Part shown: one piece after another, positions 2,781 to 4,610 of the stretch
Layout: the number at the start of each line of letters is the position of its first letter
Numbering within the stretch: the first letter of the stretch is position 1
Virus record (IMG/VR): IMGVR_UViG_2529293223_000011
Direction: 5' to 3' (one strand)
Length of the DNA: 12,152 nt
Origin: a virus
Taxonomy: Duplodnaviria > Heunggongvirae > Uroviricota > Caudoviricetes
Notes under the pieces: model-generated
The model's database searches: none
What the model was told of the DNA's origin: nothing
What the model saw: only the letters and a program-made list of their open reading frames with translations
Translations under genes and position numbers: made by a program

Positions 2781-2947
2781 TTACTTAACGTCAAACGCCC
2801 GAATTGAAGCCAAATCATCCAGACCGCTCAGCTCCTCTTTCATTTCACGCTGACGGCGATAAATCTCATCGTTGCGATCGACCTGCGCCTGCACCATTGC
2901 TGCCGCCAGTTCTTCCAGTTCCGGCATCGACAGTTTCACCTGCTGAT
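2781..2947 (-). pseudogene. tfa: 3' fragment of tail fiber assembly gene, separated from its 5' part by IS600
   Basis: Open frame (track ORF 2781..2963) encoding ..[54 protein letters not shown]. Deleting the IS plus one GAT copy (2948..4213) joins it in frame to the 4203..4610 fragment, giving a protein of ~187 aa. Confidence 0.6.
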
Positions 2948-2989
2948 TGAGGTGTACTGGCAATAGCGGACACTACCATTTGTTCTTTT

Positions 2990-3808
2990 TTAAGCAGCCA
3001 TCTGATGATATTTTTCCCTGAAGGCTGCCGGGGAGATATTCCCCAGACGAGAGTGACGACGCTGACGATTGTAGAAAATCTCAATGTATTCCCGTATTAC
3101 TGAGATGGCTTCATCCCGGTTATTAAAACGATAGTGGCTCAGGCTCTCATTTTTCAGCGTTCCCCAGAAGCTTTCCATCGGAGCGTTGTCGTAACAGTTA
3201 CCTTTACGCGACATTGATGTTTTCAGACCAAACTGCTCCTGTATGACCCGGTAATCGTATGCGCAGTACTGTGAACCTCGATCAGAGTGGTGGATTAGCC
3301 CGGCAGGTGGGCGCTGGCTCCTGAGCGCCATAAACAGGGCTTTACCTGTCAGCTCTTTTGTCATGCGCTCTCCCATGGCGTAGCCGACAATTTCGCACGT
3401 ATAAACATCTTTGATGCCAGCGAGGTACAACCATCCCTCCTGTGTGGCAACATACGTCAGGTCCGCCACCCAGACCTGATTTGGTGCTGTAGGAGCGAAC
3501 GTCTGGTTCAGCAGATTTGGCGCAACTGGCAGATTGTGGTTCGGGTTCGTAGTCGCTCTGAACTTGCGTTTCTGCTTACAGCGTAGCCTTAGCTCCTTAC
3601 GAAGACGTGCCAGTCGGTCACGACCAACGATGATGCCATTCTCTGCCAGCTCCGTCTGGAGCCGCCGGGTTCCATATGTTTCGCGAGTGCGGATATGTGC
3701 CACCTTAATCTCCAGTTTTAGCCGCTCATCACTTTGTTTTCTGTCTGAGGGTTCATGCTGTACCCAGTTGTAATAACCGCTCCTGGATACACCAAATACC
3801 TGACACAT
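2990..3808 (-). CDS. IS600 OrfB, transposase catalytic (DDE integrase-like) part, normally made as an OrfAB fusion by -1 frameshift
   Basis: 272-aa ORF MCQVFGVSRSGYYNW...HSDRGSQY...YNRQRRHSRLGNISPAAFREKY, typical IS3-family OrfB. The frame stays open upstream to the A AAA AAG-type slippery site (AAAAAAAG on minus strand, 3888-3895) at the end of orfA. Confidence 0.88.
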   Translation of the reverse strand: MCQVFGVSRSGYYNWVQHEPSDRKQSDERLKLEIKVAHIRTRETYGTRRLQTELAENGIIVGRDRLARLRKELRLRCKQKRKFRATTNPNHNLPVAPNLLNQTFAPTAPNQVWVADLTYVATQEGWLYLAGIKDVYTCEIVGYAMGERMTKELTGKALFMALRSQRPPAGLIHHSDRGSQYCAYDYRVIQEQFGLKTSMSRKGNCYDNAPMESFWGTLKNESLSHYRFNNRDEAISVIREYIEIFYNRQRRHSRLGNISPAAFREKYHQMAA

Positions 3809-3843
3809 CGCTTCAATGGGAAATTGTTGTCGCCATTGTTCGA

Positions 3844-4146
3844 TTAACGCGTATTTTTCAGCGACTCCTGTGCAAAATACGCTGTTGCTTTTTTTAATAT
3901 ATCTCGCTCAAGGCGAGCTTCATTTAACGCCTTACGCAGTTGCAGAATTTCAGATTCCAGTTCAGCCACCGTGCGGGAACCAGGAGTACCGAGCCCTTTT
4001 CTGGCGGCGGTAACCCATTGTCCTAAAGTGCCTTCAGGAAGGGATAATCGGGAAGCGCCTTCACTGATCGAAAGTTGATTTTCAAGAACCGTTCTGACAG
4101 CTTCGGCTTTGAACTCTTTAGAGTAACGTTGGGTTTTTCTGCTCAT
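3844..4146 (-). CDS. IS600 OrfA, helix-turn-helix DNA-binding transposase subunit
   Basis: 100-aa ORF MSRKTQRYSKEFKAEAVRTV... with a C-terminal leucine-zipper-like segment, typical IS3-family OrfA. ATG at 4144-4146 preceded by AAGGAG. Confidence 0.88.
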   Translation of the reverse strand: MSRKTQRYSKEFKAEAVRTVLENQLSISEGASRLSLPEGTLGQWVTAARKGLGTPGSRTVAELESEILQLRKALNEARLERDILKKATAYFAQESLKNTR

Positions 4147-4202
4147 TATTAGCTCCTTCTGATGCCATTCTATTTCAGGAAGGAGTGTCCGTTAAACTCA
4201 GG

Positions 4203-4610
4203 CTACCTCAGATTATCGGCATCGCTCCACGCCATATGTGTTTGTGCTGTGACAGATTTTGCCAGCATGACTACCGGGGACAGGCGGCCCAGTGAGTCGG
4301 GGCCAGCATTCCAGATACGACCGTTCCATTCAAACGTGAACGGCTTCGCCTCCTGTTCTGTGCGCCATGCTTCAATTTCCTGACGTCTGGCCTCTCTGGC
4401 CGCTTCCAGCATTTCTGGTGTCACAGTGAATGGGGCTATCTCACCCCATTTGCCACTTTGCAGTTCCTGCCAGATTTGCTGACCCGTCGGTGCGACATCA
4501 TCAGCGGTGGCTGTGTAGGGAACTGCCTGGTCCCTGTCGTCAAAAAAAACGTCACAGTCTACTGCGCCACTTTCGGTATAACGGGGATTAATGATTTTTT
4601 TAATTTCCAC
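4203..4610 (-). pseudogene. tfa: 5' fragment of tail fiber assembly gene, truncated by IS600; last two codons and the stop come from the IS end
   Basis: Sits directly downstream of stf on the same strand. Likely start is GTG at 4608-4610, 10 nt after the stf TGA, with GAGGAA 6 nt upstream (alternative ATGs at 4662 and 4670 would overlap stf by ~50 nt). Encodes (M)EIKKIINPRY...FTFEWNGRIWNAGPDSL...WSDADN, then runs into IS600 at 4210. Confidence 0.6.

Follow-up and report, generated by a model that had tools for sequence, protein, structure and literature searches.

A single IS600 transposition into a DUF4376 gene of an ipaH-carrying lambdoid prophage remnant in Shigella boydii 5216-82

When a copy of an insertion sequence (IS) separates two gene fragments in a prophage remnant, the question arises whether a simple transposition has split one gene there, what that gene encoded, and whether the event mattered to the cell. 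In this work, we address this question for a stretch of 12,152 nucleotides (nt) of Caudoviricetes DNA, the IMG/VR record IMGVR_UViG_2529293223_000011, referred to below as the window. The original prediction, made from the sequence, placed a copy of IS600 within a tail fiber assembly gene (tfa), flanked by a duplication of three base pairs (bp), GAT, and considered the insertion recent and simple. Our analysis indicates, with high confidence, a single IS600 transposition into a gene for a 187-amino-acid (aa) DUF4376 protein, located downstream of a tail-fiber gene in an ipaH-carrying lambdoid prophage remnant of Shigella boydii 5216-82. Every component of this event is already known, and the event itself is an ordinary Shigella IS insertion. 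IS600, first described in Shigella sonnei, is among the classical IS elements of Shigella; the disruption of genes by expanding IS and the decay of prophage genes are hallmarks of Shigella genomes.

The element occupies positions 2948–4210 on the minus strand, is oriented like the gene it interrupts, and is a full, 1263-bp copy of IS600 (IS3 family, IS3 group). It shares 99.8–99.9% identity with annotated 1264-bp copies over its full length (1263 of 1264 bp). The stretch matches 890 plasmid records, the best of which are annotated as ‘IS3-like element IS600 family transposase’, and one matching reference copy (CP011417, 72898–74161) is named IS600 in a published report (PMC7283534). On the plus strand, the element begins with TGAGGTGTAC / TGAGGTGTACTGGCAATAGCGGACACT at 2948 and finishes with ...GGCTACCTCA at 4210. 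In an alignment with three reference IS600 copies lying in unrelated flanks, the common sequence is bounded exactly by 4210 and 2948, and the ends agree base for base. The limits of the sequence shared with these copies therefore establish that the ends proposed originally are the true IS600 ends. According to the same alignment, the left, transposase-proximal terminal inverted repeat (TGAGGTAGCCTGAGTTTAACGGACACT) lies at 4184–4210 and the right one (TGAGGTGTACTGGCAATAGCGGACACT on the plus strand) at 2948–2974, both assigned to the minus strand. These terminal 27-nt sequences are imperfect inverted repeats that match at 19 of 27 positions and carry TG/CA tips.

The left flank of the element ends with ...CACCTGCTGAT at 2947, and the right flank, after 4210, begins with GATTATCGG (plus strand). 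The two flanks are alike over the 3 bp GAT alone and no further, which places the copies of the target-site duplication at 4211–4213 (copy 1) and 2945–2947 (copy 2), both read on the plus strand. A 3-bp match by itself has a 1 in 64 chance of occurring. Two of the three reference copies have 3-bp direct repeats of their own (CCG/CCG and CCC/CCC), and, judging from these flanks, 3 bp is the usual IS600 duplication length; this length was established by sequence comparison and not taken from the literature. In the search for an empty site, the 1135-nt deletion product (positions 2948–4213 removed) with its flanks was used as a query against complete genomes. Ten complete chromosomes of enteroinvasive Escherichia coli (EIEC) hold the query uninterrupted, with 99.0–99.7% identity, and the genes found there are annotated as ‘prophage tail fiber N-terminal domain-containing protein’, ‘DUF4376 domain-containing protein’, and then ipaH. 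The junction was checked base by base in one of the empty sites, NZ_CP065613 (E. coli FDAARGOS_944), which differs from the deletion product by 3 mismatches in 1135 nt. There, the 50 nt around the junction (GCCGATAATCAGCAGGTG) are identical and contain a single copy of GAT; therefore, the repeat is a true target duplication, as had been predicted, and both a coincidental GAT and a chimera formed by IS recombination are ruled out. By this comparison, IS600 entered by simple transposition and duplicated 3 bp of its target. The IS600 transposase cut the site with the 3-bp stagger usual for the element, GAT was duplicated on repair, and the DUF4376 gene is split after codon 133.

The two gene fragments fit this course of events. 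The 5' fragment (4203–4610, minus strand) encodes residues 1–133 of the DUF4376 protein, reading ...THMAWSDADN with the N codon at 4214–4212. An L codon at 4211–4209, which lies partly in the duplication and partly in the IS, then R and a TAG stop at 4205–4203 complete the 135-aa product EGI95153.1, so the expected run of two codons and a stop within the IS is indeed read. The 3' fragment (2781–2947, minus strand) carries residues 134–187 and the stop codon. Deleting 2948–4213 joins ...DADN in frame to QQVKLSMPELEEL...IRAFDVK and yields an open reading frame (ORF) of 187 aa from GTG at 4610, the length anticipated, and the natural empty sites agree with this join. A protein search, suggested originally as a check on the joined sequence, returned 1800 homologs, mostly of 187–207 aa, from Shigella, E. 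coli, and Salmonella; full-length homologs are abundant, and DUF4376 extends across the break. The break falls inside the motif DADN/QQVKLSMPELEEL, and in an alignment of 25 homologs the motif spanning it, DADNQQVKLSMPELEEL, is invariant except for one D-to-N and two K-to-I replacements. Since full-length homologs exist and the break lies within a conserved motif, both pieces belong to one gene. WP_000551130.1, encoded in NZ_CP065613, differs from the restored protein at the last residue only, and neither fragment bears additional lesions. A single IS600-disrupted DUF4376 pseudogene is the appropriate annotation for the 135-aa ‘hypothetical protein SB521682_2168’ together with the 3' fragment.

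An alternative start of this gene was considered at an upstream ATG at 4670, used by PGAP for the EIEC gene (207 aa), which would make the gene overlap the fiber gene. The GTG at 4610 is preferred because homologs outside Shigella and EIEC start there within one residue and because a GAGGA motif lies ~6 nt upstream. The E. coli SE11 homolog (187 aa) starts exactly at this position, that of phage phiP27 (188 aa) one codon upstream of it, and the remaining non-Shigella homologs in the alignment at this position or one residue earlier; the gene call of the source itself also uses GTG 4610. The choice between the two starts has no effect on the conclusion.

The distribution of the interrupted form is narrow. 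In the gene-position index, the 135-aa truncated product (...DADNLR) occurs on one contig only, AFGE01000038.1 of the assembly GCA_000211975.2 (S. boydii 5216-82), where it is deposited as EGI95153.1, and the exact IpaH protein of the window (EGI95149.1) is likewise confined to this contig. None of 5426 complete E. coli genomes gave a match spanning the junction between the IS and its flank, and the junction 30-mer was not found in metagenome contigs or in species-representative genomes. An intact duplication, an IS nearly identical to its references, fragments free of further lesions, a truncated product found in a single assembly, and flanks that depart from the empty site at 3 of 1135 nt together speak for an insertion that is specific to the lineage and, as had been proposed, simple and comparatively recent. 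As a marker, the insertion can serve to identify the strain S. boydii 5216-82 or its lineage.

The interrupted gene is a member of the DUF4376 family. The restored protein matches Pfam DUF4376 (PF14301) with 61.9 bits (gathering threshold 25) over residues 70–175, spanning the break at 133, and phrog_1141 over positions 5–190 of 194; NCBIfam has no model for it. The gene directly follows a tail-fiber gene (4621–6078, minus strand), recognized by its prophage tail fiber N-terminal domain (Pfam PF08400, 162 bits; phrog_2636) and presumed to encode the client of the DUF4376 protein; the start at 4610 lies 10 nt past the fiber gene stop (the gene ends at 4621). The same order, a fiber gene and then a DUF4376 gene, is also present in EIEC, E. 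coli SE11, and phage phiP27. The phage collection contained only partial matches with ~78–81% identity, none of them accompanied by ipaH. The protein is small, and in the 25-homolog alignment its N-terminal region is more variable than the C-terminal part. Its predicted fold consists of a helix, a beta-hairpin, and a helix, for which the closest match is the chaperone prefoldin.

Two explanations of the locus other than a recent, simple transposition had to be weighed. One holds that the flanks come from different genes or loci and were joined by recombination between IS600 copies, with the GAT repeat being coincidental. Shigella genomes contain many IS600 copies, the module of fiber gene, DUF4376 gene, and ipaH is present in 3–7 places per EIEC genome, and in one of the three reference IS600 copies the 3-bp flanks do not match, all of which would suit such a scenario. 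However, ten genomes contain both flanks together in a single uninterrupted stretch of 1135 nt (99.0–99.7% identity), the checked junction is identical and has GAT only once, and joining the fragments recreates a family motif that is nearly invariant, so that this explanation is effectively refuted and retains hardly any probability. According to the other explanation, the insertion is old and widespread among Shigella lineages. Draft assemblies break at IS copies, causing shared insertions to be under-detected, and Shigella drafts contain many ‘partial’ DUF4376 proteins. Recency, moreover, rests on look-ups of exact sequences, in which an insertion shared by short-read Shigella assemblies could be missed; this point weighs against the dating we favor. 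On the other hand, the truncated product was found in one assembly only, and DADNQQVKL continues without a break in the partial proteins from assemblies of S. flexneri, S. sonnei, and other S. boydii strains. The duplication is also intact, the IS is a single 1-bp deletion away from one reference, and the gene fragments carry no further lesions. An old and widely shared insertion is therefore quite unlikely, and a comparatively recent one is preferred.

The remaining disagreement concerns the role of the intact protein, which most likely serves the upstream fiber as a chaperone or assembly factor. This role is deduced from the gene order and from the DUF4376 chaperones of other phages. In the Alteromonas phage V22, gp27 is a DUF4376 protein encoded downstream of the fiber gene and is a required chaperone (PMC7289586), and the H-fiber of the Campylobacter CJIE1 prophage depends on the DUF4376 gene downstream of it being co-expressed (PMC7882524). 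With these two proteins, the window protein has in common the C-terminal DUF4376 domain, a gene directly downstream of a fiber gene, and small size; at the level of sequence, however, the domain alone is shared, and the function was shown for those two systems only. The competing possibility is that the interrupted gene encoded a structural tail or distal fiber component, or a product unrelated to the fiber. Several observations weigh in its favor and against a chaperone. PHROGs and phage records label the DUF4376 protein a ‘tail fiber protein’. DUF4376 is the sole Pfam family of the restored protein at E ≤ 0.01, with no match to PF02413 (Caudo_TAP). No solved structure in the PDB matches it in sequence, and there is no tail-fiber assembly protein among the fold matches listed. 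For the E. coli and Shigella subfamily itself, the chaperone role is putative. Against this possibility, DUF4376 proteins in the same position are experimentally required fiber chaperones in two unrelated phage systems, the predicted fold is closest to a chaperone, and the protein is small with a more variable N-terminal region; hence, we regard a non-chaperone function as rather improbable, though less so than the other alternatives, and a fiber chaperone or assembly factor as the better assignment. The name ‘tfa’, given in the original prediction, is right by position and likely role, and DUF4376 had been anticipated there as well, but it is not right by family. Classical Tfa proteins (lambda Tfa, Mu U, and P2 G; PF02413) share with the window protein the position after the fiber gene and the presumed role, whereas the latter has neither a PF02413 match nor any Tfa-type protein among its listed PDB sequence or fold matches.

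The consequence of the insertion appears to be small. The truncated product, ending in ...DADN-L-R-stop, is devoid of the last 54 residues (134–187), which make up ~40% of the DUF4376 domain and, in the predicted structure, comprise a beta strand as well as the long C-terminal helix. Because this strand and helix are lost, the truncated protein is very probably inactive, and the predicted inactivation of tfa can be accepted to that extent. Nevertheless, the insertion is essentially without consequence for the cell, as the tail module was already defective owing to frameshifts in J and a copy of IS4, and ipaH is unaffected. An IS3-family element does lie between the fiber genes and ipaH, as described, with no functional implication evident from this position.

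The same gene family has been hit by IS600 elsewhere. SF2024 of Shigella flexneri 2a str. 301 was compared with window positions 2866–3084 and about 4520. Its N-terminus consists of 46 residues (...NGSVRYCQYTS) encoded by the right end of IS600 and fused to the DUF4376-family sequence VPYTATADD..., and the IS lies in the same orientation as in the window. The SF2024 insertion point, before VPYTATADD, is ~100 codons upstream of that in the window and thus represents an independent event. In addition, an Enterobacteriaceae sequence cluster of 243 members (P0029) is fused to an alternative frame of the fiber gene, one codon downstream of the SF2024 break. Enterobacterial DUF4376 proteins may, on structure prediction, be prefoldin-like chaperones, with a fold not found in the tail-fiber assembly literature examined. 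The joint reading, in which this holds and IS600 also hits the DUF4376 gene beside ipaH cassettes above chance, is a speculative one that we consider doubtful. If it were true, above-chance hits could point to a hot spot in this region or to selection for the disabling of fiber chaperones that are left over. Both the predicted prefoldin-like fold and the repeated IS600 hits are offered as minor leads.

The inner features of the window copy are those of IS600, which it resembles in its TG...CA termini, in the pair of orfA and orfB with an A7 run between the two, and in the 3-bp target duplication. The orfA gene (3844–4146, minus strand; 100 aa, HTH_Tnp_1) was assigned from the ORF list and a domain match, as was orfB (2990–3808, minus strand), encoding 272 aa from the first ATG with a DDE/rve integrase core (NCBIfam transpos_IS3, 334.6 bits; Pfam rve). 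The two are in a -1 frame relationship, and an A7 run is located at 3889–3895, where -1 frameshift sites of the IS3 family usually lie. In the reference copy L001, which has the same sequence spanning orfA and orfB, RefSeq annotates a single coding sequence across both ORFs; we infer that this reflects programmed frameshifting, with the A7 run as the slippery site. The sole difference between the window copy and L001 is one missing A: positions 2986–2991 hold A6, whereas the references have A7, which accounts for the length of 1263 instead of 1264 bp. The run overlaps the orfB stop codon, which is kept, and the missing A lies in neither the coding sequence nor the terminal repeat. The window copy looks coding-competent from its sequence. 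The missing A also alters the frame of an ORF reading outward across the IS end.

On the other side of the insertion, the DUF4376 stop overlaps the start of a 59-aa ORF (TAATG; 2602–2781, minus strand), the final small phage ORF on the way to ipaH. Along its entire length, this ORF matches phrog_7784, of unknown function, and, weakly and below threshold, it matches the middle of the Caudo_TAP profile; the EIEC record leaves it without annotation. Its stop codon abuts that of the convergent ipaH (2601/2602). The ipaH gene (850–2601, plus strand) is intact and encodes a 583-aa protein of the IpaHd type with Pfam LRR_TTSS and NEL domains. It is convergent with the tail genes, and IS600 lies ~350 bp past its stop, leaving the region upstream of ipaH untouched. 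The EIEC module of E. coli FDAARGOS_944 (NZ_CP065613, 4318727–4333861), which encodes WP_000551130.1, has the same order of tail-fiber gene, DUF4376 gene, and convergent ipaH. It contains no IS600, however, adjoins ipaHb rather than an ipaHd-type gene, and sits in a different prophage backbone, with baseplate J/gp47 and DUF2612 genes, near pgl and ybhD. As the backbone differs and the cassette of fiber gene, DUF4376 gene, and ipaH recurs in 3–7 places per EIEC genome, it is modular and multi-copy across prophage types.

Chromosomal ipaH genes are known to sit at the ends of prophage remnants, and the present event is a reminder that the tail modules around these genes are remnants. In the window, J (the tail-tip gene) is a pseudogene in the 8205–8700 region of the minus strand: its 1008-aa ORF stops at ...NNVTRHD. 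The frame shifts and later returns for the last 93 aa (Ig_GpJ_C domain), through two frameshifts in the C-terminal part of the gene, near 8664–8670 and at ~8540–8560. Between the J 3' end and lom lies a 1424-bp copy of IS4 (~6746–8169), flanked by the direct repeat CACCATTTCTGGTG at 6732–6745 and 8170–8183. Its transposase is split into two ORFs, of 195 aa and 309 aa, and the copy is therefore probably inactive. IS4 beside gpJ is also present in many E. coli genomes. A dinI-like gene lies upstream of ipaH (1–249). On the source contig, just outside the window, another IS disruption is found nearby, in which an IS110-family transposase splits an isochorismatase-family gene.
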